Below are positions 4,617 through 17,631 of a stretch of DNA of 64,000 nucleotides, one piece after another. Position numbers and translations under genes: made by a program. Under the pieces are notes generated by a model. It was not told the origin of the DNA. It was given only the letters and a program-made list of their open reading frames with translations, and did no database searches. Where the stretch lies: NCBI GenBank assembly GCA_965117055.1, contig OZ220750.1, forward strand, positions 301,440 through 365,439, in the 5' to 3' direction. The stretch is from Alphaproteobacteria bacterium (lineage in GTDB: Bacteria; Pseudomonadota; Alphaproteobacteria; MPNO01). Each line of letters begins with the position of its first letter. Position 1 is the first letter of the stretch.

Positions 4617-5137
4617 GCGGGACGGCGGCCGCGGACAAGCCGCGCGAGGCCCGCGCCGACCGGGCGGCCTTCCGCGACCTCAGGCTGGAGCTCGAGGAGT
4701 TCCACTACGACTACGCCGACGCGCTGGAGCGCGGCGAGGTCGAGCAGTGGTGCGAGTTCTTCACCGACGACGCGTTCTACTGCATCATCGCCCGCGACAA
4801 TCACGAATCCGGCCTGCCGCTCGGCCTCGTCTATTGCGAGGGCAAGGGCATGCTCAAGGACCGCGCCTTCGCGCTGCGCAACACCGAGATGTACGCGCCG
4901 CGCTACCTCAACCTCCAGATAAACAACGTCCGCGTGCACGAGGCGCAAGGATCGACGATCCGCGCCGAGGCCAACTACCTGCTGCTGGAGACCCTGGTCG
5001 AGGAGCCCAGCCGCATCCAGCAGGTCGGCAAGTATTACGACGTCTTCGAGCGGGTGGACGGCAGGCTGCTGATCGCGGAACGCAGGTGCGTCTATGACTC
5101 GGTGGTGATCAACAACTGCCTGGTGTTTCCGGTTTAG
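4613..5137 (+). CDS. ring-hydroxylating oxygenase beta (small) subunit, NTF2/SnoaL-like fold
   Basis: GTGA start/stop overlap with alpha subunit; sequence EVEQWCEFFTDDAFYCI...YLNLQINNVRV typical of RHO beta subunits. Confidence 0.7.
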   Translation: MSGTAAADKPREARADRAAFRDLRLELEEFHYDYADALERGEVEQWCEFFTDDAFYCIIARDNHESGLPLGLVYCEGKGMLKDRAFALRNTEMYAPRYLNLQINNVRVHEAQGSTIRAEANYLLLETLVEEPSRIQQVGKYYDVFERVDGRLLIAERRCVYDSVVINNCLVFPV

Positions 5138-5146
5138 GGGCAGGTC

Positions 5147-5243
5147 TGTTTTAGTTGGAACCGCTTCATCCGTTCTCTTCCGTCATGGTCGGGGAAGGCC
5201 GACCATCCACGATTTGTTTTGGGGCTTATACGCCTAACTAGCC
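5147..5243. repeat. Left terminal inverted repeat of a 5.1-kb AT-richer island (hairpin-containing core 5181-5243)
   Basis: cgtcatggtcggggaaggccgaccatccacga...ggggcttatacgcctaactagcc matches the reverse complement of 10222-10304 nearly base-for-base over about 60 bp, with weaker similarity extending about 40 bp outward. Confidence 0.55.
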
Positions 5244-5428
5244 AGACTTGTTCCATCGCCGTCGCGACTGGATGGGCCAAACATGATTTCCCCGGCACGG
5301 CATTGCAGGCGCCCCATGTCACGGAGGATTCGTCGCCGTTGAGGGCCAATCGCGGTGTAGGCTTGAATCTCCCGCACTGCCAACAACCTCACGATACCCT
5401 CAAACTCCGCCCGGTCTCGCTCAAGCAT
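5234..5428 (-). CDS. hypothetical small protein (64 aa), island cargo
   Basis: ORF MLERDRAEFEGIVRLLAVREIQAYT...; mixed/AT-richer codon usage; stop lies inside left inverted repeat. Confidence 0.25.
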   Translation of the reverse strand: MLERDRAEFEGIVRLLAVREIQAYTAIGPQRRRILRDMGRLQCRAGEIMFGPSSRDGDGTSLAS

Positions 5429-5444
5429 CGACGGCTTCCTCCAT

Positions 5445-5615
5445 CTACTGAGCGGCCCTCGGCTTTCGCGTGCCGGTCTTCTGGACGCGGATCGACGGGT
5501 CCGGTTTCTTGACGGCGGAGAACATCGCGCGGGCCACGCGCTCGGGGCTGGCGTTGATCTTCGGCAGGGGCTTGGGCGGCCGGCCGCGGCCCCGCTTCTC
5601 GGTCTGTTCCGTCAT
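5445..5615 (-). CDS. hypothetical 57-aa protein with AT-hook-like motif (not in ORF track, <60 aa)
   Basis: ATG at 5615 (minus) preceded by GGGAGCGAGG; translation MTEQTEKRGRGRPPKPLPKINASPERVARAMFSAVKKPDPSIRVQKTGTRKPRAAQ; strongly GC3-biased codons; GRGRPPKP resembles AT-hook RGRP core. Confidence 0.35.
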   Translation of the reverse strand: MTEQTEKRGRGRPPKPLPKINASPERVARAMFSAVKKPDPSIRVQKTGTRKPRAAQ

Positions 5616-5883
5616 CGCCTCGCTCCCGAGTGCATCGCGTGAGCCAACCTACGGCATGATCCACGGCTAGCCAAGTTGCTTGAAATCGTCCCCCTTCTGA
5701 GCGACCATCCCCGCTGCACTATCGCGTGGAGACCCGACGTCGGGTCACCCGCTCAATACAAGAGCCCGTTCACGGCAGGGAGTAGCTACCCGGCCGGGGC
5801 GAATAGGCGGGGCTTCCGCATTCTCTGCGCGATAGTGCAAACGGCCCGGCACCAGCCGGGCTGGCACGCAGCGGGAGACGGCC

Positions 5884-6312
5884 ATGCGCAAGGTGCTTGG
5901 CGTGCTTACCGCGTTGGTGGTCAGTGGCGCCCTGGTTTCCGCTTCTCTCGCCGATGAGAAGGCCGATATGGCGCGCGTCGAGCAGGAACTTCGGGCGACC
6001 GCGGAGGCTGCGGCGATCCACGATCGGGCGAGGGAGCGGGCGAGAACGGCGGTGGCGCTGTCGTCGCTCGGGCGGGAGCGCCAGCGGGTCGAACGCGAGT
6101 GGGCGAAGTTCCGGCGAGGCGAGGAAATCGCCGAGCCGGCCAGCCGGCTCCGCGAGAAGCGCGCCATCTACAACCGGGAGATCAAACGCCTGGTCAAGCG
6201 GATGACGCGCATCTTCCTGACCGACGAGATCGAACGGGCCGAACGGGAGAAACTCGATGGCCTGATGCGCGAGCTCAAGAAAATCAGGAAGAAGGACTAC
6301 GCGCAGATCTGA
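5884..6312 (+). CDS. hypothetical secreted coiled-coil protein (142 aa)
   Basis: Signal peptide MRKVLGVLTALVVSGALVSASLA; SD GGGAGACGG before ATG; charged, helix-rich remainder. Confidence 0.5.
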   Translation: MRKVLGVLTALVVSGALVSASLADEKADMARVEQELRATAEAAAIHDRARERARTAVALSSLGRERQRVEREWAKFRRGEEIAEPASRLREKRAIYNREIKRLVKRMTRIFLTDEIERAEREKLDGLMRELKKIRKKDYAQI

Positions 6313-6436
6313 CGGGCGGAAAGTCAGCCAGAGACGCTACCCGGCAGTCTTCGGCGCGTCGCGGTAGAATACGGAGCCCCGCCAGTGGCCGCTGGCGGGG
6401 CTCTCAACCTTCAACACCAACCGGAGACTGAACCCA

Positions 6437-6681
6437 TGGACGGAGAGATCGAGTACCTAAAGGGCAGATTCGCCATCCTTGAGCACATCGTGCTCATTGG
6501 GCTAGGCGTGCTAGGGCCTACCGCTCTCCAAACGGTCGTTACTGCCGTCAAGGGCATCGACCTGGACGCCGTGCCGCGCAGGCGGGGCACGTCTACAGCA
6601 GCGTATAGGAGAGGAATGGAGCAGCAGCTGAAAGGATTTGTCACCCTTTGTGAAAAGGCTCTGCGCGATGATGAAGGGTGA
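6437..6681 (+). CDS. hypothetical small protein (81 aa), atypical codon usage
   Basis: SD GGAGAC 8 nt upstream; rare codons (cta, aga, agg, tat) for this genome, suggesting foreign origin. Confidence 0.35.
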
Positions 6682-6782
6682 ATCTCCAAATTCCACGTTC
6701 TTTGCCTGACGATCAGCAATAGACACGGCGAAGCCCTCTCGGTAGATTGTCTCATCCTGAGAGGGTCTTCTTCGTTTTTCGT

Positions 6783-6824
6783 CCGCCCCGCGTTGGCCGT
6801 CAAACCTGCGGGGCGGTTTTGATT
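6783..6824 (+). terminator. rho-independent terminator-like hairpin
   Basis: Perfect 9-bp stem CCGCCCCGC / GCGGGGCGG with 16-nt loop followed by TTTTGATT. Confidence 0.5.
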
Positions 6825-7053
6825 CAGACCGACACCGATTCGACAGCCATCATACACCGACGCGGCAGTTTGGTCAGGTGCTCACTTCGGGAGACCGACA
6901 GCGCGGCCAGCCCCGTGTCCTCTCCCAAACGAAAAAAACAGGCCGTCGAGCGCTAGCTGGAGGCCGGCGATCTTGCGGCTGTCTTCTGTCATGCCGGTCG
7001 TGGTCTCTCTCGCTCCGTTTGACCGTCCGGATTCACGCTGCATGGGGATAGAA

Positions 7054-7326
7054 CTAGCGAAGCAAATACCATATGTCTTCGCCGTTGAGAAACACGTCGC
7101 ACACCAATCGCCCATAACTCAGGCTTTTGTAGTTTTTCAGTTCGACGGTCTCGTCGCCGATCAAATTTTCTAGTTTTGTTTTTGCGGCTTGTCCTCCAGG
7201 CTCGTTCAATTCTGGAGCGTTGAAGTTTGCGATTCGGACGCGGTCTCCGGTAGTTCCTTGGAAACTCCAATCGTGAAGAGTTTGAAACGTATCGCCATCG
7301 ATTACTTTGTACACCTTCGTTTTCAT
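7054..7326 (-). CDS. thermonuclease (SNase-like) domain protein, short (90 aa)
   Basis: VIDGDT motif plus R..I....APE segment (VIDGDTFQT...RVRIANFNAPELNE) and YGRLVCDVFLNG, characteristic of staphylococcal-nuclease-like fold; AAGGA SD; AT-rich codon usage unlike flanking genome. Confidence 0.55.
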   Translation of the reverse strand: MKTKVYKVIDGDTFQTLHDWSFQGTTGDRVRIANFNAPELNEPGGQAAKTKLENLIGDETVELKNYKSLSYGRLVCDVFLNGEDIWYLLR

Positions 7327-7432
7327 CGGTTGTGGTCCTTCTTGATCTCAGTCGAACGCGAACGGTCTTCGTTTGTGTCTGTGCCTTCTACCAAGTCCCG
7401 ATAGCGCAGCCGCTTCCGGACCGAAGCGGCGG

Positions 7433-7642
7433 TCAGGGCTCCATTCCGAAGTAACGGAAAGCGTCGAAGATCGCCCCTTCCCTGTTAGGTGGACAGGGAT
7501 GCTTCCTGACCGAGCCTTGCCGATTCGGTGCCGATCTCATTGCAAAGCCGGCCCGTTCCTTGCAATGCGCGACCCAACAGGTCTTCACATGCCAGCCGTA
7601 GTTTTGCTTCACCCAGCCTTGGATCTGTTTGTAAGTCGCCAT
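7433..7642 (-). CDS. hypothetical small protein (69 aa), MATYKQIQGWVKQNYGWHVKTCWVAHCKE...
   Basis: ORF in track; lies in the same reading frame as, and 12 nt downstream of, an upstream 40-aa Cys-rich ORF, separated by a single in-frame TGA. Confidence 0.35.
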   Translation of the reverse strand: MATYKQIQGWVKQNYGWHVKTCWVAHCKERAGFAMRSAPNRQGSVRKHPCPPNREGAIFDAFRYFGMEP

Positions 7643-7657
7643 TGCAGACGCCGTTCA

Positions 7658-7777
7658 GTCGTTGCCGATGGCGTCGGGGCAGTAAAGCTCGACGAAGCCG
7701 CACTCTCGGCACGTCAGGCACCGGAACCAATCCGGCCCCAGCTTGCCGATGACCTTGTTCAGATATTCCTGACCCAT
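7658..7777 (-). CDS. Cys-rich 40-aa ORF (C-x2-C-x2-C-x7-C), possibly the N-terminal part of a disrupted/recoded gene continuing into 7433-7642
   Basis: MGQEYLNKVIGKLGPDWFRCLTCRECGFVELYCPDAIGND then TGA, then 4 codons, then MATYKQ... in the same frame. Confidence 0.25.
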
Positions 7778-7811
7778 GCGGACACCCCCTGTGTCACCCC
7801 GGCTGCGAAGA

Positions 7812-7834
7812 ACGGGGTGGGCATTTAGCCCACC
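7812..7834 (-). terminator. perfect hairpin (9-bp stem GGGGTGGGC/GCCCACCCC, 5-nt loop) downstream of minus-strand gene 7862-8092
   Basis: ggggtgggcatttagcccacccc; on minus strand followed by GTTCTT (weak U-tract). Confidence 0.35.
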
Positions 7835-7861
7835 CCGATCCCGCTACTGCATGGAGGCGCA

Positions 7862-8092
7862 CTACTTTCCGCCCCAGACGTGGTAGACGGACCAATTGGA
7901 CAAGCCGTTCCGAGCACCACCCGGACTCTGCTTGCACCCCTTGGCGTCTGCTTCCTTCTTCTCACGAGCAAGGGCTCCGTCGTAGGTCAGGCCCTTCGCC
8001 AGAATCTTGCCGTGCGTATGCCCCTCTTCGCGCTTCCAGTAGTCGATCCGCGCCTGCGGATCGGTCGACATTCCTACTCGGCAGGCCATCAC
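7862..8092 (-). CDS. hypothetical protein (76 aa)
   Basis: ORF MMACRVGMSTDPQARIDYWKREEGHTHGKILAKGLTYDGALAREKKEADAKGCKQ...; start overlaps stop of upstream 32-aa ORF (GTGATG); no family recognised. Confidence 0.4.
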   Translation of the reverse strand: MMACRVGMSTDPQARIDYWKREEGHTHGKILAKGLTYDGALAREKKEADAKGCKQSPGGARNGLSNWSVYHVWGGK

Positions 8093-8187
8093 GCCCCTCC
8101 CGAATAGACGGGGCGCATGGGTCCCGGCATCGGCCGGGGCATCGGTCGCACGGGCGGCCTGTGGATAGGTCGAGATTGGGCGTGCAT
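8089..8187 (-). CDS. 32-aa Pro/Arg-rich leader-like ORF, translationally coupled to 7862-8092
   Basis: ATG at 8187 (minus) preceded 5 nt upstream by AGGAGGGG; MHAQSRPIHRPPVRPMPRPMPGPMRPVYSGGA; TGA overlaps the GTG/ATG start of the next ORF. Confidence 0.3.
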   Translation of the reverse strand: MHAQSRPIHRPPVRPMPRPMPGPMRPVYSGGA

Positions 8188-8353
8188 CAGCCCCTCCTAT
8201 GGTGAACGGAGGCCGCTTGATCTGATGCCGCAGGATGGGTATAATCCTTCGTCACAGCGACACTTCCCGCACGGCCTCTCATCGCTTGCGGGGAGCCATT
8301 CAAGGGTCGGGCACTTCGGTGTTCGGCCCTTTTTTCTTGATGGCTTGATCTAT

Positions 8354-9410
8354 CCTTGAAACTAGATCGATCTATACTTGTTTGTCAAGTCACGAGACCA
8401 GATCGGTATACCTCAGCCGCTTCCCGACCATACCACGCGCCAGCGCGGACATCTGCGCCACGGTGTCGAGATCGCGCAGGTTGTTCCGGCCGGCGAATTC
8501 CCGGACATAGCGGTGCAGGTGCTTCGGGCTCCAGTGATGGTAGGTCCCGTGGTAGCCCCGTTTCAGGAGAGACCAGAAGGCTTCCATGCCGTTACAATGC
8601 GCGGCCCCTCGGACATACTCCCCGGCGCCGTGATTGACGGCCTCATGGTCGAACCACGCATCCAGCACGCCATAGGCCGACGCCTCGTCGGTGTAGACCT
8701 TCGCACCCGGCGCGGCGTGTTCGGCAACGAAGCCGGCCGTATGCGGTGAAATGGTCGCCGGGATCGGGCGGGCCGCGACCCGGTTCGTCGCGCGGTCCTT
8801 CGCACCAACCACGGCGGTTTTCCCGACCGCGCCGCGGCCGGTGCCCGCCAGTTCCTTCCGCTTCGCGTTGCTCATGTTCTTCCGCTTGCCGCCGATGTAC
8901 GTCTCATCGGCTTCGACCGGGCCGGGGAAAGGCATGTCAACGCCTTCGTCGAACGCCTCGCGGATGCGATGCATCAGGTGCCAAGCCGTCGCCTGCCGCA
9001 TCCCGATGTCCCGGTAGACCTTCATGCTGGCCGTGCCCTTGATCCCGGTCGTCGTCAGGTACAGCGCGATGGCCCATTTCTGGAGCCCGAGCTTGCTCGA
9101 CTGCATCACCGTCCCCTTGCGGACGGAGAAGTGATTGCGGCAGTCGCGGCAGCGGTAGGGCATGGGCTTGCGGGTCTTGACGCGAACCGTGTTCGTCGAT
9201 CCGCAGTCCGGGCAGAACCGGCCCTCGGGCCACCGCTGTTCCTCGAACCACGCCTCGGCCGCTGCGTCGTCGGGGAACATCCGCAGCAGCTCAATAACCG
9301 TCAGCCCCTCTCTGTGCAACCTTCCCGGACCTTTCTTCGCCATCTTCCGTCCCCATCGCGCCGCCCTGTTATGGCTAGTTATATGGGGATTATTCTGTTG
9401 GATTCAAGGC
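8354..9410 (-). mobile_element. IS1595-family insertion sequence (ISXO2-like), about 1.06 kb; ends approximate
   Basis: Contains a single transposase gene of the right size for this family; putative short terminal inverted repeat CCTTGAA at 8354-8360 and its complement at 9404-9410; boundaries uncertain. Confidence 0.5.
8390..9343 (-). CDS. IS1595-family transposase (N-terminal zinc-ribbon + ISXO2-like DDE domain)
   Basis: N-terminal CPDCGS...CRDCRNHFS zinc ribbon; downstream ISXO2-like region with DEASAY and HTNxIEsfW-like (HCNGMEAFWS) motifs. Confidence 0.8.
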   Translation of the reverse strand: MAKKGPGRLHREGLTVIELLRMFPDDAAAEAWFEEQRWPEGRFCPDCGSTNTVRVKTRKPMPYRCRDCRNHFSVRKGTVMQSSKLGLQKWAIALYLTTTGIKGTASMKVYRDIGMRQATAWHLMHRIREAFDEGVDMPFPGPVEADETYIGGKRKNMSNAKRKELAGTGRGAVGKTAVVGAKDRATNRVAARPIPATISPHTAGFVAEHAAPGAKVYTDEASAYGVLDAWFDHEAVNHGAGEYVRGAAHCNGMEAFWSLLKRGYHGTYHHWSPKHLHRYVREFAGRNNLRDLDTVAQMSALARGMVGKRLRYTDLVS

Positions 9411-9525
9411 AGGATCACTGGAAATCGAGATGCGGCCCATTGCCTCACCACGCTTGCAGACGCGTGGGGCCGATGATTAGATATGACGAGCGTGGCCATA
9501 TCGGCCACTGGGTGTTAGGGAGAAG

Positions 9526-9786
9526 ATGATGTCGGATGGACCACTGGCGCAAGAGGCTGCGGTCTATCGGCGCAACCTCAAGGACTGGGCCGAGCACGAG
9601 TCGGAGTATGTGCTCATCAAGGGCGAAGAGGTCTGCGGCTTCCACTCCAGCTATGAAGATGCCCTCAAGGCTGGATATGAGAGATTCGGCCTAGAGCCAT
9701 TCTTCGTGAAGCAGGTCAGTGCGGTCGAGCAGGCTCACCACATTACCAGGTTCGTTGAGCCATGCCGCACTTCACAAGCCCAATAG
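9526..9786 (+). CDS. hypothetical small protein (86 aa), partner of downstream aspartic protease
   Basis: Strong SD AGGGAGAAG before ATG; overlaps next gene by 25 nt. Confidence 0.45.
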   Translation: MMSDGPLAQEAAVYRRNLKDWAEHESEYVLIKGEEVCGFHSSYEDALKAGYERFGLEPFFVKQVSAVEQAHHITRFVEPCRTSQAQ

Positions 9787-10205
9787 AGGGAGCGGGCCCA
9801 CTTCTCAACGTATTGTTTACTGTCAGCGCGGCGCGGCTGGAAGTTCTGAAAAGACTAGGCGCCCCCGTACCAAGTCCCCAGATCGTCATGGGTCTGCTGG
9901 ACACAGGTGCTAGCAATACCTGTGTTGACCCGAGTGTACTCCAAGCTTTGAGCCTGACGCCGACCGGGGAGTCGTCGATGCTGACTCCGTCTACCAAGGA
10001 CGGGCCGGTTCCGACCGACGAATACGATTGCGGTCTGATTATCTATGCGAGTTACACAGAGACCCCTTATGTGGTTCGCAATCTTGCCGTCTCGGAGACG
10101 CCGCTTCTCCGTGGAGGCTTCCAAGCCCTTATCGGGCGAGATGTTCTGGCAAATTGCGTTCTCACCTATAACGGAGCAATCGGCCAATATACCTTGGCCT
10201 TCTAG
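9762..10205 (+). CDS. retropepsin-like (clan AA) aspartic protease, 147 aa
   Basis: Catalytic motif LLDTGAS and downstream ALIGRDVL (retropepsin flap/dimer motif); size typical of single-domain bacterial retropepsin-like proteins. Confidence 0.6.
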   Translation: MPHFTSPIEGAGPLLNVLFTVSAARLEVLKRLGAPVPSPQIVMGLLDTGASNTCVDPSVLQALSLTPTGESSMLTPSTKDGPVPTDEYDCGLIIYASYTETPYVVRNLAVSETPLLRGGFQALIGRDVLANCVLTYNGAIGQYTLAF

Positions 10206-10221
10206 TTGGGATGGGCGCTTT

Positions 10222-10351
10222 GGCTAGTTAAGCGTATAAGCCCCTTTGTTTTTGTTTCCAGCGCCCTAAAAACTCGTGGATGGTCGGCCTTCGCCGACCA
10301 TGACGGTCAGGAGACGGGGGTAAAGGCGCTTCTATCTGAAACGGACAGGCT
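10222..10351. repeat. Right terminal inverted repeat of the 5.1-kb island (core 10222-10304)
   Basis: Reverse complement matches 5181-5243 nearly identically except a roughly 20-bp insertion; same ATGGTCGG-N7-CCGACCAT hairpin. Confidence 0.55.
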
Positions 10352-10433
10352 CTAGGGGGGCGAGAGCCCTCCAGGCTCCGGATGAGGCCAATCGCGTCCC
10401 CCGGGGACGCGAAATTAGTCCCGTTTCGGGACT

Positions 10434-10526
10434 ATGTTTCACGTGAAACATTTTTGGCCGTTTGGCGCGGTTTCTTAACGTAATGGATAAGGCAGCAAGG
10501 CTGACCTTTGTTTCACGTGAAACATT
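10434..10526. promoter_or_regulatory. Two copies of a perfect 16-bp palindrome TGTTTCACGTGAAACA (10434-10449 and 10511-10526), 77 bp apart; candidate regulator binding sites
   Basis: Exact duplicate, perfectly self-complementary 16-mers with CACGTG core; located between island right border and the stop of the TPP decarboxylase beta gene. Confidence 0.4.
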
Positions 10527-10535
10527 GGGCCGGCC

Positions 10536-11141
10536 TCAGACCCTGGCGTCGAAGATCCTCACGCCGTAGGTGCGTTCCAAGTAGCGGCCGAAGCGGAACT
10601 TGCATTCCGGGCCGTCCATCGGCGGGTCGGGCAGCGCGGCGCCGAGCGGCTCCACGTCGAGCACCACGAAGGCCTCGCCGTTGACCCGCTCGACTTCGTC
10701 CATGCCGGTGCGGAGGTCCGCGAGCGTGCCGAAACGGAAGACGTTCCGCAGCCCGCAGGCGCGGGCGAGCGCGGCGTAGTCGGTCTCCCCCTCATCCGCC
10801 ATGTCGACCTCGAAGGTGGCGCCGTAGACCCCGTTGTCGACCAGGAAATGGGTGAGGTTGGGAAGGCCCAGGCGGCGTTCCACCGTCAGCATGCCGGGGT
10901 TCATCAGGAACGCGCCGTCGCCGGAGAACGCCCAGACATTGGCCCGCGGGATTCCGTAGGCGATGCCGGCGGCGAACAGCGAGGCGAGGCTCATCGAGGC
11001 TTCGAGGTAGAACACCTTCTCGGTCTCGCCGGTGAGCTTCCACCACATCTCCGACGCGTTGCCGGCGGAGGTGACGACGACCTGGTCGGTCCAGCGCTCG
11101 ACCAGATGGGCGAAGCAGGCCTCCATCTGCATCGCCATCAC
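10536..11141 (-). CDS. TPP-dependent decarboxylase, beta subunit (sulfopyruvate/phosphonopyruvate decarboxylase ComE-like)
   Basis: TPP-binding GDG-X-N-like region (AFSGDGAFLMNPGML...VDNGVYGAT); start overlaps stop of alpha-subunit gene. Confidence 0.7.
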   Translation of the reverse strand: MMAMQMEACFAHLVERWTDQVVVTSAGNASEMWWKLTGETEKVFYLEASMSLASLFAAGIAYGIPRANVWAFSGDGAFLMNPGMLTVERRLGLPNLTHFLVDNGVYGATFEVDMADEGETDYAALARACGLRNVFRFGTLADLRTGMDEVERVNGEAFVVLDVEPLGAALPDPPMDGPECKFRFGRYLERTYGVRIFDARV

Positions 11142-11656
11142 GCGCTCTCCCCGTAGAGCAGGTCGCGGGTGAAGCCGACCACCACGGGGCGCGAGATGGT
11201 CCTGGAATGGGCCACGGCGCGGCCGATCTCGTCCAGCCGGTCGCGCCGCTCGATCACCGTGTAGGGGAGGTCGATCGACTGCATGACGGGTTCGAGGTAG
11301 AGCCCGTTCGAGACGTGGAACTTGGCGCGGTCGCCGATGCGCCCCCGCATGGTGATGAAGATCGTCATCGGCACCATGTAGGTGTAGTTGATCTTGGTGA
11401 TCGCGTAGATGCAGGTCATCAGCCCCGACGCGCCCATCAGGGCGAGCGAGCCCCGGCCGCCGAAGAACGCCCCGGAGCACAGCCCGACCGCCGATTCCTC
11501 GCGGTTGACCGGGATGTGGTCGAACCGCGAATCCGCCTCGAACTCCTCGATCAGCGCGGCGATCCAGCCGTCCGGCAGGCTGGCGACGAGCTCGATTCCC
11601 GCGCCGGCCGCCCGCTCCGCGATGGCGGCCGCGATCTCCCGGCTGGGCCCGGCCAT
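11138..11656 (-). CDS. TPP-dependent decarboxylase, alpha subunit (ComD-like, pyrimidine-binding domain)
   Basis: About 170-aa TPP-enzyme N-terminal-domain homolog, same split architecture as archaeal/bacterial ComDE. Confidence 0.7.
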   Translation of the reverse strand: MAGPSREIAAAIAERAAGAGIELVASLPDGWIAALIEEFEADSRFDHIPVNREESAVGLCSGAFFGGRGSLALMGASGLMTCIYAITKINYTYMVPMTIFITMRGRIGDRAKFHVSNGLYLEPVMQSIDLPYTVIERRDRLDEIGRAVAHSRTISRPVVVGFTRDLLYGESA

Positions 11657-11665
11657 CGGCGCCTC

Positions 11666-12382
11666 CTAGAGGTCGCTCACCCCGGCGCGGTGGCGGAGAT
11701 ACTGCCACGCCCGGTTGACCGATATCTCGCTGGTGAAGGTGGCCGAGCAGTGCTCGATCTCGGCATCGGAGAGATACGTGACCTCGCCCATCCGCATCGC
11801 CTCGCGCTGCAGCTCGGCGGCGACCTGGAGATAGACCGAGGTCATCGTCGATTGCTGGTGCGAGGCGCCCGCCACCACGCAGCCGTGGCCGCGCATCAGC
11901 GCCACCCGGTTGGCCCCGAGGCAGTCGGCGAGGTCGCGCCCCTGGTCCATGTCCACGACCAGCAGGTTGGTTTCGCCGAAATTGTCGCGGATGTCCCACA
12001 CCGGGATGTCGGCGCCGATCGCCGCGCCGACATGGATGATCGGCCGCAGCCTCACCCCGGTCACCCCGAACGGGATGACCGCGTGCGAATGGTTGTGGAC
12101 CACCGAGTTGACGTCGGGCCGCTTCTCGAAGATCGCGCCGTGGATGAAGCGCTCGGCATAGGGCACGCGGCCCGAGTCGTCGACCGGCTCGCCGTCGAGG
12201 GTGAACTCCATGATGTCGTCGAGGGTGACCAGCTCGGGCGCGCGCGAGCACGACATCAGGTAACGCTCCGGATTGTCCGGGTGGCGCACGGTGACGTGGC
12301 CGTAGGCGTCGACCACCCCTTCCCGCGAGAGTATGCGGTTGGCGACCACCACGTCGCGCATCGCCTGAAGCACATCGCTCAT
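11666..12382 (-). CDS. class II aldolase/adducin-family protein
   Basis: About 238 aa with His-rich metal site (HNHSHAV...H) typical of class II aldolase/decarboxylase fold; first gene of aldolase-comD-comE operon. Confidence 0.7.
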   Translation of the reverse strand: MSDVLQAMRDVVVANRILSREGVVDAYGHVTVRHPDNPERYLMSCSRAPELVTLDDIMEFTLDGEPVDDSGRVPYAERFIHGAIFEKRPDVNSVVHNHSHAVIPFGVTGVRLRPIIHVGAAIGADIPVWDIRDNFGETNLLVVDMDQGRDLADCLGANRVALMRGHGCVVAGASHQQSTMTSVYLQVAAELQREAMRMGEVTYLSDAEIEHCSATFTSEISVNRAWQYLRHRAGVSDL

Positions 12383-12818
12383 CCCGGAACCTCCCCGACT
12401 GGCTTCGCGTGAATGCCCGTCGGCGGTCTTACCATGCCGGGCCCCGCGGTGCGAGCACGCAGCCCCAATCGCGGGCGGGCTTGCGCCAGATCAATCGGGT
12501 TTGTAGCGGAATGACTACGATGCCCCGCCCCGCACGCCCTTCCAACCCGATCATTATAAGAAAATCCAATGATGACTCTCAGAAAACGGTATTAGTTTTT
12601 ATATGGGGAAAGGCATAGAAGGGTCGACAGGAGTTTATGGGGCAATGCCCACACCGGCGTTTGAAGAGGAAGAACGGAAATGAACCGGAAGCGAATGTTC
12701 GAAACGCGACTCGACGGATCGGCGAACAGGACACCGGAACCGCCCGATTGAGCCCGGGCAAACCAGATCGCCGGCGGGACGAGAACCGCCGACGCATCGT
12801 CGCGAGGAGGATGCAGAA
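12383..12818. promoter_or_regulatory. Divergent promoter region between aldolase operon and lysR-type regulator; unusually AT-rich stretch 12540-12620
   Basis: Only extended AT-rich segment in otherwise about 70 percent GC context, between divergently oriented genes; LysR regulators typically bind such regions. Confidence 0.4.
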
Positions 12819-13820
12819 ATGCCCGTAACCTTACGTCAGCTGCGCTATTTCCAGGCCCTGGTCGAACACGGCTCGTTCAGCCGCGCGGCCGAGAGCGTAC
12901 ATGTCTCGCAGCCCGCGCTCTCGCTCCAGATCCGCGAGCTCGAAGCCTCGCTGGGCGGACCGCTCGTCGAGCGGGAAAGCCGCGGCATCCGGCTCACCCG
13001 GCTGGGGCGCGAAGCGCACGAGCAGACGCTCAGGATCCTCGACGAGACGCTGCTGCTCGAGACCATGGGGAAACGCTTCGAGGACGGCCCGCTGCGCTTC
13101 GCCGTGGGAATCCTGTCCACCCTCGCGCCCTATCTGTTGCCCGGCCTGCTCGAACGGCTTGGGGCCTCGTCGCCGCGCGTCGAGCTCAACGTCATGGAAT
13201 TGTCCGGTCAGGAGCTCGTGGCCGATCTCCTCGCGGGCCGTCTCGACGCGGCGATCGTTTCGCTGCCGCTCGGCCTGCTGGAACTGCCCGAGAGGGAGCT
13301 TTTCGAGGACCGCTTTCTGCTCGCCGGCCGTGCCCGGCGGCTCGATGCCCTCCGCGCGCTCGGCGATGCGCCGCAACCGGCGGACCTCGCGCGGGCGGAT
13401 ATCGGACCGTTGCTCACGCTCGGCGACGGCCACTGCCTGGCCAGCCAGGTCCTCGGGGCCTGCTCGATGTGGCGCATTCAGGAAGTGCGGCGCGGCGCGG
13501 GGTCTCTCGCCACGCTGTCGAGGCTCGTCGCCGGCGGCGCCGGTCTGACGCTGCTGCCGGAATCCGCCGCGCTCTGCGAACAAGCCGCCGCTCCGGAGCT
13601 GAGCTTCCTCCGCTTCGGCGCGCCCGAGCCCTCGCGACAGATCGGCCTCGCACATCGCGCGGTCTATCACGGCCAGCGATGGGTCGATCTCCTGGTCGAG
13701 GCTGCCTCGGACGCGGGCCAGGCGCTCGTGGAGGAGGCCAGGAGCACCATCGGCGCGCCTTCCGGGAAGCGCCGCCCGCGCAGGGCTGCCGCCCCCGCCC
13801 TGGCCGCGGCGAAAGCGTAG
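12819..13820 (+). CDS. LysR-family transcriptional regulator
   Basis: N-terminal HTH LRQLRYFQALVEHGSFSRAAESVHVSQPALSLQIRELE and LysR substrate-binding domain; divergent from aldolase operon. Confidence 0.85.
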   Translation: MPVTLRQLRYFQALVEHGSFSRAAESVHVSQPALSLQIRELEASLGGPLVERESRGIRLTRLGREAHEQTLRILDETLLLETMGKRFEDGPLRFAVGILSTLAPYLLPGLLERLGASSPRVELNVMELSGQELVADLLAGRLDAAIVSLPLGLLELPERELFEDRFLLAGRARRLDALRALGDAPQPADLARADIGPLLTLGDGHCLASQVLGACSMWRIQEVRRGAGSLATLSRLVAGGAGLTLLPESAALCEQAAAPELSFLRFGAPEPSRQIGLAHRAVYHGQRWVDLLVEAASDAGQALVEEARSTIGAPSGKRRPRRAAAPALAAAKA

Positions 13821-13872
13821 CCCGCATATTCCGATCCTATCGGGTCAGGACGGCCGGTCCACCCTCCCCCCA

Positions 13873-13973
13873 CCCCTCCCGCAAGCCCCGGACTGCGATC
13901 CGGGGCAAGCGGGAGGGGAGAAGGTAAGGAAAGGTCGGCGCCGCAACTCTCCCTCTCCCCAGCGGGGAGAGGG
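13873..13973. repeat. REP-like palindromic elements (hairpin 13873-13918 with 19-bp stem; hairpin 13951-13973), followed by an 11-G homopolymer (13983-13993)
   Basis: cccctcccgcaagccccgg...ccggggcaagcgggagggg and ccctctcccc-agc-ggggagaggg; same family recurs inverted at 18744-18847. Confidence 0.6.
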
Positions 13974-14085
13974 CCGGGGTGAGGGGGGGGGGGCTCGCCG
14001 TCGACGGGACCGGACGGTCAGGGTATGGCCGTCCCGCGTCGGATCGACCCTCGACTCGAACGGATAATCGGCCGCCCGGCGCGTA

Positions 14086-14967
14086 TTACCCCGCCTCTTG
14101 CCCCGCCCTCCATTCGAGGAAATGGGCGACGATCTCCTCGCCGGTGGCGAACCAGACGCCGTCGTGGCTCCGGACATGGGCGAGCGCCCGGTCGAGCGCG
14201 CCGATCCGGTGCGGAACCCCGACGATGTAGGGGTGAAGCGAGACCGTGGCGACGCGCCCCGACACCGCGCTTTCGGCGTAGAGCACGTCGAAGGCGCGGC
14301 GGATCATGTGTTCGAAGTCGTCGGCGGTGAACCCGTTTCCCTCGAACGCCTGCTTGTCCGAGACCCCCGCGCCGTAGGGCATCGAGACGATCGTCTTGCC
14401 CGCGACCTCCATGGCGACCGGCTGGTCGTCCGAGTCCCAGTCGACCACGTAGCGGCAGCCCTCGGCGACCAGCCTGTCGAGGGTTCCCCAGGTTTCCTGG
14501 CGTCCCGCGCCGAGCCAGCCGGTCGGGCGGCGTCCCGTCGCGCGCTCGATGCGATCGAGCGTCCTGGCGACGATGCCCCCGGCCTCTTCCTCGGACCCCG
14601 CCTCGTTGAGCCGCCGCGTGTTGCTCTCGCAATGGCCCATCAGCTCCCAGCCGAGCCGCAGGCACTCGTCGACGATGCGCGGGGCCGCGTCGCACACCTC
14701 GCTGTTGAGCGCGACCGTGCCGGGAACGCCGTGGCGCTCCATCGCCTCCATCATGCGGAACACGCCGACCCGGTTGCCGTAATCCCGCTTGCCCCAGGCC
14801 GACACGTCGGGGATCAGGCCTGGGCCGTCCGGCATCCGCTCGTCCAGCGCGAAGACCTCGATATTGGGGACGACCCAGAACGCGATCCGCGCCCCGCCCG
14901 GCCAGGTCAAGGGCGGCCGGTCGACGATCGGCTCGTAGGGGTAGGGGCCGTAGGCGCGGGGTTCCAT
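14086..14967 (-). CDS. polysaccharide deacetylase-family protein (PuuE/allantoinase-like)
   Basis: N-terminus MEPRAYGPYPYEPIVDRPPLTWPGGARIAFW and NodB-like deacetylase core; upstream in-frame codons in the track are probably not translated. Confidence 0.65.
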   Translation of the reverse strand: MEPRAYGPYPYEPIVDRPPLTWPGGARIAFWVVPNIEVFALDERMPDGPGLIPDVSAWGKRDYGNRVGVFRMMEAMERHGVPGTVALNSEVCDAAPRIVDECLRLGWELMGHCESNTRRLNEAGSEEEAGGIVARTLDRIERATGRRPTGWLGAGRQETWGTLDRLVAEGCRYVVDWDSDDQPVAMEVAGKTIVSMPYGAGVSDKQAFEGNGFTADDFEHMIRRAFDVLYAESAVSGRVATVSLHPYIVGVPHRIGALDRALAHVRSHDGVWFATGEEIVAHFLEWRAGQEAG

Positions 14968-15535: not shown

Positions 15536-16165
15536 ATGACCGCCGAGATCGTCTTCTATACCAATCCGATGTCGCGCGGGCGGATCGTGCGCTGGATGCT
15601 GGAGGAGCTGGCGGTTCCGTACCGCACGGAATTCCTGGAGTACGGGCCGCCGATGAAGTCGCCGGACTATCTCGCCGTCAACCCGATGGGGAAGGTGCCG
15701 GCGATCCGCCACGGGGAGACGGTGGTCACCGAGGCGCCAGCGATCTGCGCCTATCTGGCGGACGCCTTCCCCGAGGCCGCGCTGGCGCCGCCGGCGGGAG
15801 AACGGGGCGCCTATTACCGCTGGCTGTTCTTCGCCGCCGGACCGCTCGAAGCCGCCGTGACCAACCGCAATTTCGGCCTCGCCCCGCCCCGGGACAAGGA
15901 GGCGATGGTGGGCTACGGCAATTTCGCCCTGGTCATGGACACCCTCGAGCAAGCCGTCGGCGCCGGAGGCTACGTGGCCGGAGAAGGCTTCACGGCCGCC
16001 GATGTCTATGTCGGCTCGCACATCGCCTGGGGGCTCCATTTCGACCTGATCGAGAAGCGTCCCGCCTTCGAGTCGTACTGGTCGCGGCTCAAGGGACGCG
16101 AAGCGTATCTGCGGGCCACGGCTCTCGACGACGCGGCGGGCGGCGGCACGGATGCCGATGACTGA
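15536..16165 (+). CDS. glutathione S-transferase
   Basis: N-terminal thioredoxin-like GST domain (IVFYTNPMSRGRIVRWMLEEL...KVPAI) and C-terminal helical domain. Confidence 0.75.
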   Translation: MTAEIVFYTNPMSRGRIVRWMLEELAVPYRTEFLEYGPPMKSPDYLAVNPMGKVPAIRHGETVVTEAPAICAYLADAFPEAALAPPAGERGAYYRWLFFAAGPLEAAVTNRNFGLAPPRDKEAMVGYGNFALVMDTLEQAVGAGGYVAGEGFTAADVYVGSHIAWGLHFDLIEKRPAFESYWSRLKGREAYLRATALDDAAGGGTDADD

Positions 16166-16222
16166 CACGTGGCGTCCGGGCCGGGACTTTCGGTATTCAC
16201 GAAGGCGGTGCGGTGCACTCCC

Positions 16223-17401
16223 TCAAAGCTGCGGCATGATCCGTTTCATGAAGTCGTCGAAGAGCGGCACGGTGAACGCCGTGTCGCCGTGAGCAGGGCT
16301 GTAAATCATGCCCTTGGCGATAAGCGTGTTCCTCATGGGAGCCACCGTGGTGACCTTCCGATTGAGGATGTGGGCGATATCGCCCGATCGATGCGGCCCG
16401 GGTCCGAGTTCGGCCATGGCACGCATATAGCGTTTCTGGGTCGGCGTCAGCCTGTCGAAGCGCACGCGAAAAAAGCTCGCGTCGAGGTCGGCAAGCGCTT
16501 GGGTCGTCGCGCGCCGGGCGTCATCGAGCCCGATGGGAGAGGCGTCGGCGACGTCCCAGCCGTGCTTGCCCCACTCCTGAAGAAAGTATGGATAGCCGTT
16601 CGTCTGGCGCAATATCTCCGTAATCGCGTCCGGATGAAAGACGACCCCCTCCCTGGAAGCGGGCACCGTCAGGGCATCGCGGGCATCGTCGTCGTCGAGG
16701 CGATCGACGGAGGCGAATTCGAAGAGGCGCTCTGCGTAGGACTTGGCGTCGCCGGTCCTCCCGACCAGCTGGGGCAGTCCCGCCGCCACCATGGTGATCG
16801 GCAACTGGTCCTGGCTGGCGCTATGGAGCGCGGTAATCAGCGAGGCGAGTTGGTCTTCCGGTAAATATTGCAATTCATCGATGAAGAGCACGATCGCGGT
16901 GGCGCGCTCGGCGGCAGCCTTCCCGAGGGTCAGAAGGAGATCCGTGAGATCCGTATCGAGATCGCTGCTGTCGGCCAGCCCGGTTTCAGGATCGACATCG
17001 ATGCTGAATTCGACGTCCTCATACTTGACCCTCAGGGCTTTGGCGAAGCTCGCGAGCGCCCTCATCCCCTTCAGCAAATTGTCCTTTAGCGCCTCGCCGT
17101 GGCTCAAGCGCAGGAGCGTCGCACGCATGGCCGGAATCAGTAAGGCCGGCAATGAGCGCTCTTCCGGCGCTTCCATTCTGACGCTGGCGATGCCGCGCGA
17201 CTCGGCGTCCAGACGAATGCGGTTGAGCAGGACGGTCTTGCCGACACCCCGCAAACCGTAAAGGATGAAACTCCGAGCCGGTTTCCGCGCACGGATGCGG
17301 TCCAGTGCCACGGCCGCGCGTTCGATCAGCTCGTCGCGCCCCGTAAGCTCGGGGGGCGGCGTGCCGGCGCCAGGCGCGTAGGGATTCTGCCTTGGATCCA
17401 T
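16223..17401 (-). CDS. AAA+ ATPase (Arch_ATPase-like P-loop NTPase with C-terminal winged-helix/DUF234-like domain)
   Basis: Walker A GLRGVGKT, Walker B VLFIDELQ; C-terminal region with wHTH-like segment. Confidence 0.6.
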   Translation of the reverse strand: MDPRQNPYAPGAGTPPPELTGRDELIERAAVALDRIRARKPARSFILYGLRGVGKTVLLNRIRLDAESRGIASVRMEAPEERSLPALLIPAMRATLLRLSHGEALKDNLLKGMRALASFAKALRVKYEDVEFSIDVDPETGLADSSDLDTDLTDLLLTLGKAAAERATAIVLFIDELQYLPEDQLASLITALHSASQDQLPITMVAAGLPQLVGRTGDAKSYAERLFEFASVDRLDDDDARDALTVPASREGVVFHPDAITEILRQTNGYPYFLQEWGKHGWDVADASPIGLDDARRATTQALADLDASFFRVRFDRLTPTQKRYMRAMAELGPGPHRSGDIAHILNRKVTTVAPMRNTLIAKGMIYSPAHGDTAFTVPLFDDFMKRIMPQL

Positions 17402-17631
17402 TTCAAGCCATCTTACCCCGGTTTATGCAACAAAGATAATATGCAGTAAGCTCGATAAGAACGCTGAGTGACCCGTCTCGTTCCCGCCAGCGCTTTTCGA
17501 AACCAACCGTGTTGCCCGAGGCTGTATTTCGACCCGGTCGAGAAGCGGAAGGCCAGTAGCGCCGCCGCGTTGCCAGAGCCCGGCGAAGGCCGCAAGATGG
17601 CGCGCGCCGACGACCGAGAGCGAGGATTGCG

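Follow-up and report, generated by a model that had tools for sequence, protein, structure and literature searches.

The island between the oxygenase and decarboxylase operons

The window examined here is a stretch of 64,000 nucleotides (64 kb) from an alphaproteobacterium. An oxygenase operon and a decarboxylase operon converge in it, and an island of lower GC content lies in the intergenic DNA between them. The insertion between these operons and its foreign base composition had both been proposed in the original prediction, and both were borne out: the GC content of the element was 0.607, compared to 0.661 in the 3-kb flanks on each side and 0.68-0.70 in the neighbouring genes. The gene content was likewise confirmed, namely an IS1595 transposase, an SNase-like ORF, a retropepsin-like ORF and several small ORFs with no family match. 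The features of the locus are as follows.

5135..5137, plus: TAG, the stop codon of the oxygenase beta subunit and left copy of a putative TA(G) duplication flanking the hairpin doublet
5138..5220: left half of the doublet (outer arm 5138-5180, hairpin 5181-5212, start of the A/T-rich spacer)
5213..5220: target-site duplication TTTGTTTT, left copy (sequence and automated TIR+TSD search)
5221..5244, plus: terminal inverted repeat IRR, the end distal to the transposase start, GGGGCTTATACGCCTAACTAGCCA
5445..5615, minus: p56, 56 aa, invariant AT-hook core RGRPPK, just inside IRR (tblastn; kept in six copies)
5884..6312, plus: cargo, 142 aa, N-terminal hydrophobic signal-like segment followed by a charged helical remainder
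6436..6681, plus: cargo ORF, 81 aa
7054..7326, minus: cargo, short SNase-like (thermonuclease-type) nuclease, 90 aa (PF00565, 2.3e-4)
7385..7451, minus: relic of a second IS1595 transposase, from the part coding for its C-terminus (..ALTAASVRKRLRYRDLV; direct repeat D1 and translated motif search)
7433..7642, minus: cargo, 69 aa, member of phage family phrog_27283 (5.9e-17)
7655..7777, minus: cargo ORF, 40 aa, Zn-ribbon-like (weak PF09855 match, below the curated cutoff)
7862..8092, minus: p76, a 76-aa ORF with homologues in other copies
8390..9343, minus: IS1595-family transposase, 317 aa, full length, N-terminal Zn ribbon and DDE domain
9344..9415, minus: conserved transposase upstream region (alignment of six copies and a related IS)
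9526..9786, plus: cargo ORF, 86 aa, overlapping the start of the next gene
9762..10205, plus: cargo, retropepsin-like aspartyl protease, 147 aa (PF13650, 2.1e-5)
10221..10244, minus: terminal inverted repeat IRL, upstream of the transposase, reverse complement GGGGCTTATACGCTTAACTAGCCA
10245..10252: target-site duplication TTTGTTTT, right copy (sequence and automated TIR+TSD search)
10245..10352: right half of the doublet (spacer remainder 10245-10273, hairpin 10274-10305, outer arm 10306-10352)
10353..10355, plus: TAG, right copy of the putative TA(G) duplication flanking the doublet

The transposase matched PF12762 (7e-38, profile 4-153 of 153), PF12760 (2.5e-9) and the NCBIfam entry NF033547, 'IS1595 family transposase' (7.8e-53, profile 1-215 of 215). 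The conserved region upstream of it is a putative promoter and contains, in order, CTTGAA (-35-like), about 17 nt, CATATA(A)CTAGCCAT, GGGGACGG (RBS-like) and ATG. It also holds a motif, TA(A)CTAGCCA, with similarity to the inner part of the terminal inverted repeats (TIRs). The recurrence of GGCTAGTTA seen in the original prediction was found here, at 9371-9380, but this place is the conserved, presumptive promoter/5'UTR region of the transposase gene and not the right end of an IS, as had been assumed. Direct repeat D1 pairs the 7385-7451 relic with the 3' end of the transposase gene, and the interior is, as judged by this relic, a mosaic.

Family and profile searches returned no match for the 142-aa, 81-aa and 86-aa cargo ORFs. 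A homologue of the 142-aa protein rides on a different IS1595-type transposon in locus L121. The 90-aa SNase-like ORF matched the phrog_452 endonuclease family (2e-14). For p56, 323 homologues were found, of which 0 are annotated; the protein may assist transposition or target choice.

True ends and the split hairpin doublet

Two pairs of inverted arms were identified, 5180-5226 with 10260-10306 (47 nt, 87% identity) and 5221-5244 with 10221-10244 (24 nt, 96% identity), and each core pattern occurred exactly twice in the window compared to 0.00 times expected from shuffles. The inverted repeats are real, and weaker similarity reaches outward to about 5147 and 10351, as originally described. 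Both arms do contain the predicted hairpin, but its loop is 6 nt long and not 7: the N7 pattern gave 0 matches and the N6 pattern found both copies. The left hairpin, CGTCATGGTCGG-GGAAGG-CCGACCATCCACGA, folds at -16 kcal/mol and the right one at -28.6 kcal/mol (z = -3.5). The arms are not colinear: in the right one, the hairpin lies about 21 bases further from the inner 24-mer than in the left one.

This inner 24-mer marks the true ends. IRL and IRR match at 23 of 24 bases and are directly flanked by the 8-bp duplication TTTGTTTT, and the idea that the ~100-bp hairpin repeats are the ends of the element did not hold. A single 8-bp match has a chance probability of 1.5e-5 under uniform base composition. 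The target here is low-complexity T-rich DNA, in which a chance 8-bp repeat is somewhat easier; this concern is mitigated because of the length of the doublet spacer and the four other perfect duplications described below.

Outside the TIRs lies a second, separate element. In 36 assemblies of Alphaproteobacteria, the hairpin core was found at >107 unrelated loci; cargo is almost always absent there, and only one of these loci also holds the TIR. The original prediction had named such cargo-free recurrence of the repeat cores as evidence against itself. Tight doublets make up 44 of the loci, 34 of them with a spacer of 27-37 nt (mode 32). Removing 5221-10252 from the window restores a 31-nt spacer, ATTTGTTTTTGTTTCCAGCGCCCTAAAAACT, that is almost base-for-base like those of family members, whereas keeping the second duplicate would give a 39-nt spacer. 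Once rejoined, the two halves fold into a single palindrome of 178 nt (z = -11.5) and align end to end with intact family copies, other examples of which are also bracketed by TAG/TAG; the intact doublet at this locus is a reconstruction, the closest relatives being without the doublet as well. The doublet is, then, a MITE/REP-like element of ~180 bp, independent of the transposon and split by it. Each '~100-bp inverted repeat' is a composite, with a doublet half outside and a transposon TIR inside, and the pair looks like long hairpin-bearing ends because the transposon landed inside a small palindromic repeat.

No Rfam family matched the doublet, and we know of no published name for it. Its hairpins, which a simple terminator scan did not flag, may act as terminators. 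If so, the site could be a harmless landing place.

At this site, both the doublet and the transposon are missing from relatives with the same flanking operons (87-91% nucleotide identity in the flanking genes). In one of them, L126, GGTCTAGGGGG runs uninterrupted across the site.

It was also considered whether the whole of 5147-10351 is one transposon or MITE-mobilised cassette, with the ~100-bp arms as its ends and the IS1595 element as a passenger. The arms are indeed inverted, the rejoined doublet has terminal similarity of its own as well as the TAG/TAG flanks, and a transposase acting on the doublet ends could in principle move the doublet with its contents. However, the 8-bp duplication is internal to the arms and directly abuts the 24-bp TIRs, the arms nearly always occur 27-37 nt apart with no cargo between them, and a second copy of arms plus cargo was not found. 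Four other sites also have the same TIRs, transposase and p56, with no hairpin in the vicinity. This explanation is largely refuted and most unlikely.

Copies elsewhere, conserved core and cargo

Other copies were found through exact-pattern scans of the ends and context look-ups in metagenome sequences. Four further complete copies of 3.4-5.1 kb lie at unrelated sites, each having the same ends and a perfect 8-bp duplication:

L113 (L115 is the same element): 3,500 bp, duplication ATACGAAA
L119: 5,062 bp, duplication CATTTTTT
L120: 3,832 bp, duplication CTTCGATA
L121: 3,394 bp, duplication AAAACAAA

A fifth, L085, from a MAG, has the same ends without a clean duplication (CAAAAAAG / ATCGAAAG). 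Several single ends were also found, in which the outer flanking sequence differs all the way to the first G of GGGG. The 8 bases flanking 13 insertion sites had a mean A+T content of 0.76, compared to a background of 0.32. The L085 copy likewise lies within a doublet spacer, and CTTCGATA, the target of three related insertions, adjoins another palindromic repeat. The remaining copies are at A/T-rich 8-mers with no doublet nearby and, therefore, the insertion preference looks compositional or directed at short motifs and not strictly REP-specific.

All six copies carry p56 and an IS1595-family transposase (77-87% identical to that of the window in the other copies), and the remaining genes vary; homologues of p76 (35-37% identity), for example, are present in L085 and L113, out of five other copies. 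Most p56 differences from copy to copy are at third codon positions. The conserved core of the lineage consists of the two TIRs, the transposase with its upstream region, and the 56-aa AT-hook protein by IRR. The SNase-like nuclease, the retropepsin-like protease with its 86-aa partner and several small ORFs are exchangeable cargo.

The transposase had originally been taken for a passenger IS, and a related possibility is that it belongs to a small nested IS, with the 24-bp ends and cargo forming a non-autonomous mobile insertion cassette mobilised in trans. It starts 901 bp from the nearer TIR, compared to roughly 50-80 bp in simple ISs (such as the second IS in L121), and the TIR-like motif just upstream and the second transposase relic fit a compound structure. 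Yet no inverted repeat or duplication surrounds the transposase alone, and the upstream motif is fixed relative to the start codon, promoter/5'UTR-like and without the GGGG tip. Moreover, TIR, transposase and p56 occur together in 6 of 6 copies despite varying cargo and a TIR-to-transposase distance of 540 to 1,435 bp. A compound origin is very unlikely, and the transposase is the element's own.

Lower GC, small orphan ORFs and matches to two phage families (phrog_452 and phrog_27283) could also point to what remains of a prophage, genomic island or integrative element after recombination at a repeat, with the inverted repeats as scars. Against this, a search of the window found no integrase or recombinase, tRNA or tmRNA, the short TIRs with an 8-bp direct duplication are a signature of DDE transposition and not of site-specific integration, and the same ends bracket 3.4-5.1-kb elements elsewhere. 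The probability of this origin is close to negligible, and neither 'MITE-mobilised' nor 'degraded integrative element' describes the island.

The broader claim of a mobile, transposon-like cargo element was upheld by the TIRs, the duplication and the same ends at other sites. We conclude with high confidence that 5221-10244 is an intact 5,024-bp IS1595-family transposon with passenger genes (a 'transporter IS') nested in a pre-existing MITE/REP-like doublet. Its own Zn-ribbon/DDE transposase (8390-9343, minus) would recognise the 24-bp TIRs, GGGGCTTATACGC[C/T]TAACTAGCCA, and integrate the element into an A/T-rich 8-mer, here TTTGTTTT, duplicating it. The target was the A/T-rich spacer at the centre of the ~180-bp palindromic doublet, directly after the oxygenase beta stop codon and between the convergent operons, and the insertion parted the doublet halves by 5 kb, giving the semblance of ~100-bp hairpin-bearing inverted repeats. 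The element may still be active.

Comparison with known systems

For IS1595-family elements, PMC8101967 describes target duplications of 8 bp together with a zinc finger at the N-terminus and a DDE domain; one member has A/T-rich 8-bp repeats (PMC12561309). Passenger-carrying 'transporter ISs' were first described in this family, according to the passage of PMC3129680 that cites Siguier 2009. The window element resembles them in its single transposase with an N-terminal Zn ribbon (PF12760) and DDE_Tnp_IS1595 domain (PF12762), short TIRs beginning with GG, 8-bp duplication of A/T-rich targets, genes unrelated to transposition within the TIRs, and a size of a few kb. The name 'transporter IS' (tIS) for IS1595-family ISs with passenger genes reportedly comes from Siguier, Gagnevin and Chandler in 2009. 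Unlike those elements, ours had no megablast-level match in 72,556 plasmid records, where the best plasmid-borne transposase was <47% identical, and the lineage is known only from uncultured Alphaproteobacteria. In this lineage the AT-hook gene (56 aa) lies beside IRR, and 0.5-1.4 kb of variable cargo separates IRL from the transposase. At its tip, GGGGCTTAT seems similar to the 'ggnnatTAT' of the ISNwi1 group, and we take the ISNwi1 subgroup of ISfinder, with its passenger-carrying members, to be the closest kin, presumably including our element.

IS1397 and ISKpn1 are said to insert into enterobacterial BIMEs, and the window and L085 elements similarly lie precisely within a palindromic intergenic repeat. 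Unlike these ISs of REP/BIME sequences, other copies of our element are at A/T-rich 8-mers with no doublet nearby.

The doublet itself is like alphaproteobacterial MITEs and REP repeats in being about 180 bp long, non-coding and a near-perfect palindrome, in having many copies per genome in related MAGs, in being missing from the orthologous site of relatives, and in the TA(G) on both sides of several copies. Unlike them, its core comes with outer ends of two kinds or more, among them the (TA)GAGCCTGTCCGTTTCAGATAGAAGCGC seen in the window and IS1595-type GGGGCTTAT..GATTACTTGAC TIRs with perfect 8-bp duplications.

A palindromic repeat split by a transposon

The original prediction described an AT-richer island with hairpin-containing inverted repeats of about 100 bp as its ends. 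A repeat search recovered the inverted repeats as two pairs, 5180-5226/10260-10306 (47 nt, 87%) and 5221-5244/10221-10244 (24 nt, 96%), and each repeat core pattern occurred exactly twice in the 64-kb window, versus 0.00 occurrences expected. The base composition also agreed, with an interior GC content of 0.607 compared to 0.661 in the 3-kb flanks and 0.68-0.70 in the neighboring genes, and the predicted IS1595 transposase, SNase-like ORF, retropepsin-like ORF and several orphan ORFs were present. The pattern with a 7-nt hairpin loop matched nothing, as the loop is 6 nt. Lower GC (0.60-0.64, versus a background of about 0.69) was also seen at 12251-13000 and 16000-17500. The features of the region are as follows.

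5137 (+), end of the left neighbor, a Rieske oxygenase alpha/beta pair
5138-5220, left half of the doublet, a palindromic pair of hairpins
5221-5244, terminal inverted repeat (TIR) IRR
5445-5615 (-), p56, a 56-aa AT-hook ORF
5884-6312 (+), 142-aa cargo ORF
7054-7326 (-), SNase-like ORF
7862-8092 (-), p76, a 76-aa ORF
8390-9343 (-), transposase
9526-9786 (+), 86-aa ORF
9762-10205 (+), retropepsin-like ORF, 147 aa
10221-10244, TIR IRL, upstream of the transposase
10245-10352, right half of the doublet
10536 (-), end of the right neighbor, a TPP-enzyme/aldolase operon convergent with the oxygenase pair

Pairwise alignment of the arms gave three zones. The outermost was weakly similar (about 5147-5180 versus 10306-10351), the middle was a near-identical hairpin block, CGTCATGGTCGG-N6-CCGACCATCCACGA, and the innermost was the 24-mer, separated from the hairpin in the right arm by about 21 additional bases. 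When one genome per species was scanned for exact matches, the hairpin core, ATGGTCGG-N6-CCGACCATCCACG, occurred at no fewer than 107 loci in at least 36 assemblies; the hosts among the matches listed were for the most part uncultured Alphaproteobacteria, with Dongiaceae, Defluviicoccus and Rhodospirillales among them. The listed matches included 44 tight doublets, in which a plus copy was followed closely by a minus copy. The spacer from CCACG to CGTGG measured 27-37 nt in 34 of these, most often 32 nt (20 cases), and typically read AGTTTTTAAGCGCTGGAAACAAAAAACAAAA. These spacer counts among the listed loci indicate that the repeat usually exists as a tight palindromic doublet, cargo-free and with an A/T-rich spacer. 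The original prediction had itself named this result as one that would refute the hairpin repeats as ends of the island. Being small (about 180 bp), non-coding and multi-copy with terminal inverted repeats, the doublet fits the description of a MITE. Its outer arms were conserved and inverted in end-to-end alignment with other copies, and the host doublet was the only one within the 64-kb window. TAG/TAG borders were present in the window and at two other loci (L079 and L088) and were degenerate in other copies; no cognate transposase was identified for the TA(G)-flanked subtype. With Rfam gathering thresholds, nothing anywhere in the window matched a family, and the hairpins are therefore not a known RNA.

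The hairpins in the window have the relative orientation seen in a doublet, yet they lie 5 kb apart. Directly inside them were GGGGCTTATACGCCTAACTAGCCA (5221-5244) and its inverted partner at 10221-10244, with one mismatch. These TIRs are short (24 bp, 23 of 24 identical) and start with GGGG, in keeping with the GG start of IS1595 ends, and their outer boundary was set by more than 10 differing flanks. A target-site duplication (TSD) was to be sought immediately outside 5147 and 10351; identical 8-mers, TTTGTTTT, were found immediately outside the 24-mers (5213-5220 and 10245-10252). Deletion of 5221-10252 left a 31-nt spacer, ATTTGTTTTTGTTTCCAGCGCCCTAAAAACT, a near base-for-base match to those of intact members such as TTTTGTTTTTTGTTTCCAGCGCCTTGAAAACT (L055), while keeping both 8-mers gave 39 nt, beyond the main range. 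The rejoined unit aligned over its whole length with intact copies, the outer arms of about 45 nt and of the type (TA)GAGCCTGTCCGTTTCAGATAGAAGCGC included, and folded as a single 178-nt palindrome (-59 kcal/mol, z = -11.5). The prediction is confirmed as an observation and upheld in part as an interpretation. The segment is a cargo transposon, bounded by TIRs, flanked by a TSD and equipped with a full-length IS1595-family transposase, and it split a palindromic repeat; the long hairpin repeats are this split target and do not form its ends. The pre-insertion junction would have read ...CCACGATTTGTTTTTGTTTCCAGCGCCCTAAAAACTCGTGG... within an intact doublet, and the host would be expected to hold few transposon copies (GGGGCTTATACGCYTAACTAGCC), every one of them flanked by an 8-bp duplication of its own, alongside many cargo-free doublets. 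A transposon landing in the middle of a palindrome mimics a far larger element with long structured ends; for annotation, checking which stretch of the repeat turns up elsewhere cargo-free allows the true ends to be recovered.

Order of insertion and nesting in related genomes

The region was compared with five related assemblies, in which oxygenase alpha was 93-96% identical and the flanking genes had 87-91% nucleotide identity. Insertion between the oxygenase and decarboxylase operons was borne out, since both doublet and transposon were absent from the same site in these syntenic relatives. In the proposed empty-site comparison, the transposon was absent at all five orthologous loci, and so was the doublet. 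Past the oxygenase stop codon, one relative (L126) read GGTCTAGGGGG, followed by a shared parS-containing segment, and at the same junction the window read GGTTTAG, then doublet and transposon, then TAGGGGGG. Together with the TAG/TAG borders of other copies, this comparison suggests that the TA(G)-flanked doublet came first and that the transposon entered its spacer later. The doublet itself, as judged from these alignments, is probably an insertion older than the transposon at this site.

Three other relatives (L124, L125 and L127) carried an extra MR_MLE (mandelate racemase-like) gene and an ORF of about 180 aa between the operons, at about 11.4-12.9 kb. Since both are absent from the window and L126, the lineage varies at this intergenic site. 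The window also held, between doublet and TPP-enzyme operon, two perfect copies of TGTTTCACGTGAAACA, 74 bp apart (10435-10450 and 10509-10524), versus 0.02 expected by chance; one copy was kept in L126 (11058). Similar paired modules, with a GTCCCCCGGGGAC hairpin ahead of each, were seen at L017, L037 and L068. In the literature, this 16-mer serves as the consensus of chromosomal parS, the ParB-binding centromere.

Four other loci showed the reverse nesting, with the doublet inside 265-287-bp MITEs that have IS1595-type TIRs, GGGGCTTAT..GATTACTTGAC. The TIRs of the transposon are, by sequence, related to those of these MITEs.

MITEs with a doublet inside (locus; coordinates; target duplication)
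L082; 1632-1896; perfect 8-bp duplication
L086; 958-1231; perfect 8-bp duplication
L089; 3945-4231; perfect 8-bp duplication
L094; 1553-1839; perfect 8-bp duplication

At a further locus, L085, the transposon lay within a MITE of this kind, in its doublet spacer. MITEs enclosing doublets and transposons within doublets together indicate that the doublet and IS1595-type elements have been nested repeatedly, in both directions.

Other copies, target choice and cargo

The TIR pattern occurred twice in one of the at least 107 hairpin loci (L085) and also in 11 metagenome stretches. In every case the flanks differed outward of the first G of GGGG, and the interiors diverged past the 24-mer. Complete copies came from a mismatch-tolerant TIR search and from the sequence around the closest transposase homologues.

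Further complete copies of the transposon (locus; coordinates; length; flanking 8-mers)
L113; 4969-8468; 3,500 bp; ATACGAAA / ATACGAAA
L119; 6638-11699; 5,062 bp; CATTTTTT / CATTTTTT
L120; 4606-8437; 3,832 bp; CTTCGATA / CTTCGATA
L121; 7461-10854; 3,394 bp; AAAACAAA / AAAACAAA
L085; 1180-6603; 5,424 bp; without clean duplication

No hairpin doublet was found at the insertion sites of L113, L119, L120 and L121. In L085 (1016-6603), the left end of the transposon lies inside the MITE-borne doublet spacer, and a perfect duplication was looked for and not found. To the right the transposon is flanked by ATCGAAAG, which is similar to TATCGAAG, the sequence outside the left TIR of the MITE; joint use of that TIR and the right TIR of the transposon in transposition is an unproven route. 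At one A-run, L121 held a tandem pair of differing IS1595-type cargo transposons (7461-10854 and 10864-14850), the second of which (3,987 bp, ends GGGGATTATATACTTGACTGAGC, TSD AAACAAAA) carried a 47%-identical homologue of the 142-aa cargo protein in the window.

The 8 bases adjoining 13 distinct ends averaged 76% A+T, versus 32% in the rest of the window; just 0.14% of window 8-mers attain 7 of 8 A+T. One 8-mer, CTTCGATA, served three to four times as the duplicated target of IS1595-type elements (L086, L120 and L085), beside another palindromic repeat (cgcggctgcgccgctactcagggtgagg) each time, suggesting a sequence-specific hot spot on top of plain A/T-richness.

All six copies, including that in the window, encoded a p56 homologue and a transposase with 77-87% identity to that of the window, and in all of them GC was below that of the flanks. 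p76 was present in three (the window, L085 and L113), and the cargo was otherwise variable; L121, for example, carried an N6/N4 methyltransferase, and L120 a protein with a SocA/Panacea domain. Read in the direction of the transposase gene, the element runs IRL, variable cargo (540-1,435 bp across copies), upstream block, transposase, variable cargo (with p76 where it is present), p56 and IRR. The upstream block consists of CTTGAA(C), about 17 nt, CATATA(A)CTAGCCAT, GGGGACGG and ATG, and it could be aligned among all the close copies and to the promoter region near the IRL in a simple relative (the second IS of L121). The motif GGCTAGTTA had been noted to recur next to the IS right end; it does occur at 9371, but in a conserved transposase promoter/5'UTR-like region resembling the inner TIR. 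Conservation of the upstream block across copies explains this recurrence, and the motif may be a transposase binding site. A neighboring GGGGATTAT was considered as the mark of a nested element with the 86-aa and 147-aa genes and was rejected, since the position of the upstream block relative to the transposase start is kept in six copies.

Differences between copies of p56 fell mostly at third codon positions, its AT-hook core RGRPPK was invariant, and 323 homologues (51-81 aa) were found, all unannotated; at the sequence level, p56 is a real gene. A relic of the last 20 or so codons of a second IS1595 transposase, reading ..ALTAASVRKRLRYRDLV versus ..ALARGMVGKRLRYTDLVS* in the intact gene, lies at about 7385-7451 (-), about 1 kb downstream of that gene. 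This relic suggests that recombination between copies, or nested events, gave rise to the cargo. The SNase-like ORF matched phage endonuclease phrog_452 and a 69-aa ORF matched phrog_27283, while PADLOC gave no defence-system match for any cargo ORF and NCBIfam no match among the ORFs besides the transposase. A degraded integrative element had also been proposed. No ORF had an integrase domain, a tRNA/tmRNA scan of the window found none, and the ends are inverted, not direct, which argues against such an element and against a prophage remnant.

The landing site between convergent operons would be harmless, as each half-doublet retains a hairpin and T-rich tail. The doublet hairpins are putative terminators; a simple terminator scan did not flag them because the T-run begins more than 2 nt past the stem. 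Between p76 and the transposase 3' end, the window has a strong terminator-like hairpin (8302-8331, +; 13-bp stem, then TTTTTTCTT), with a good sigma-70-like match ahead of it at 8217-8245. A role for the AT-hook protein p56 in target choice is possible. We consider it rather unlikely that p56 is an accessory factor steering the lineage to A/T-rich 8-mers in genomes of about 68% GC, with the bays flanking the transposase serving as a shuttle for small modules. If this were true, insertions would be harmless, as such 8-mers include terminator tails and palindromic-repeat spacers, and the bays would shuttle nuclease, protease and toxin-like modules, such as the SNase or the 86-aa ORF with the retropepsin-like protease.

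Transposase and family assignment

By its matches to PF12762 (DDE_Tnp_IS1595; 7e-38, profile 4-153 of 153), PF12760 (N-terminal zinc ribbon; 2.5e-9, residues 24-70) and NCBIfam NF033547 ("IS1595 family transposase"; 7.8e-53, profile 1-215 of 215, well above the 75-bit cutoff), the transposase is full length. The motifs VEADETY, VYTDEASAY and NGMEAFWSLLKR, picked out by eye, are consistent with DDE-K and contain putative catalytic residues. The gene had been listed as a passenger of the island; the same TIRs and the 77-87% identical transposase in all six copies make it the element's own engine. Movement would be by DDE-mediated transposition with this enzyme, its catalytic residues being assigned by eye. 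Since the TIRs are 23/24 identical and the TSD and gene are intact, the insertion is probably recent and activity probably retained.

Megablast of the element against 72,556 plasmids gave no match, and the best plasmid transposase was less than 47% identical and named only "IS1595 family transposase". Close relatives were environmental assemblies, some labelled Defluviicoccus or Rhodospirillales. A PDB sequence search with the transposase, protease and nuclease found no meaningful solved relative, and exact-protein look-ups for the transposase, protease, oxygenase alpha, 172-aa decarboxylase subunit and a 100%-identical p56 match found none on record. This is apparently an intact, uncatalogued cargo-carrying IS1595-family lineage in Defluviicoccus-like Alphaproteobacteria, with a conserved AT-hook gene and a strong preference for rare A/T-rich 8-mers. 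The tips GGGGCTTAT and GGGGATTAT, the latter from the neighboring L121 relative, fit "ggnnatTAT", the tip of the ISNwi1 subgroup; a literature search for details of this subgroup gave nothing useful.

The findings leave the current understanding of transposition unchanged. Its 8-bp TSD, perfect in four further copies as well, is that of the IS1595 family, and about 10 non-transposase ORFs lie within the TIRs, the cargo differing among copies that share TIRs, transposase and p56. The IS1595 family is described as having an 8-bp TSD, a DDE domain and, in all groups except IS1016, an N-terminal zinc ribbon (PMC8101967), and the family member ISApl4 has A/T-rich 8-bp repeats (PMC12561309). Passages of two further sources (PMC3129680, PMC4611040) trace the first description of "transporter ISs" with passenger genes to the family-defining paper, Siguier et al. 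2009. The window element shares these published features of the family, with A/T-rich 8-bp repeats and passenger genes as in transporter ISs.
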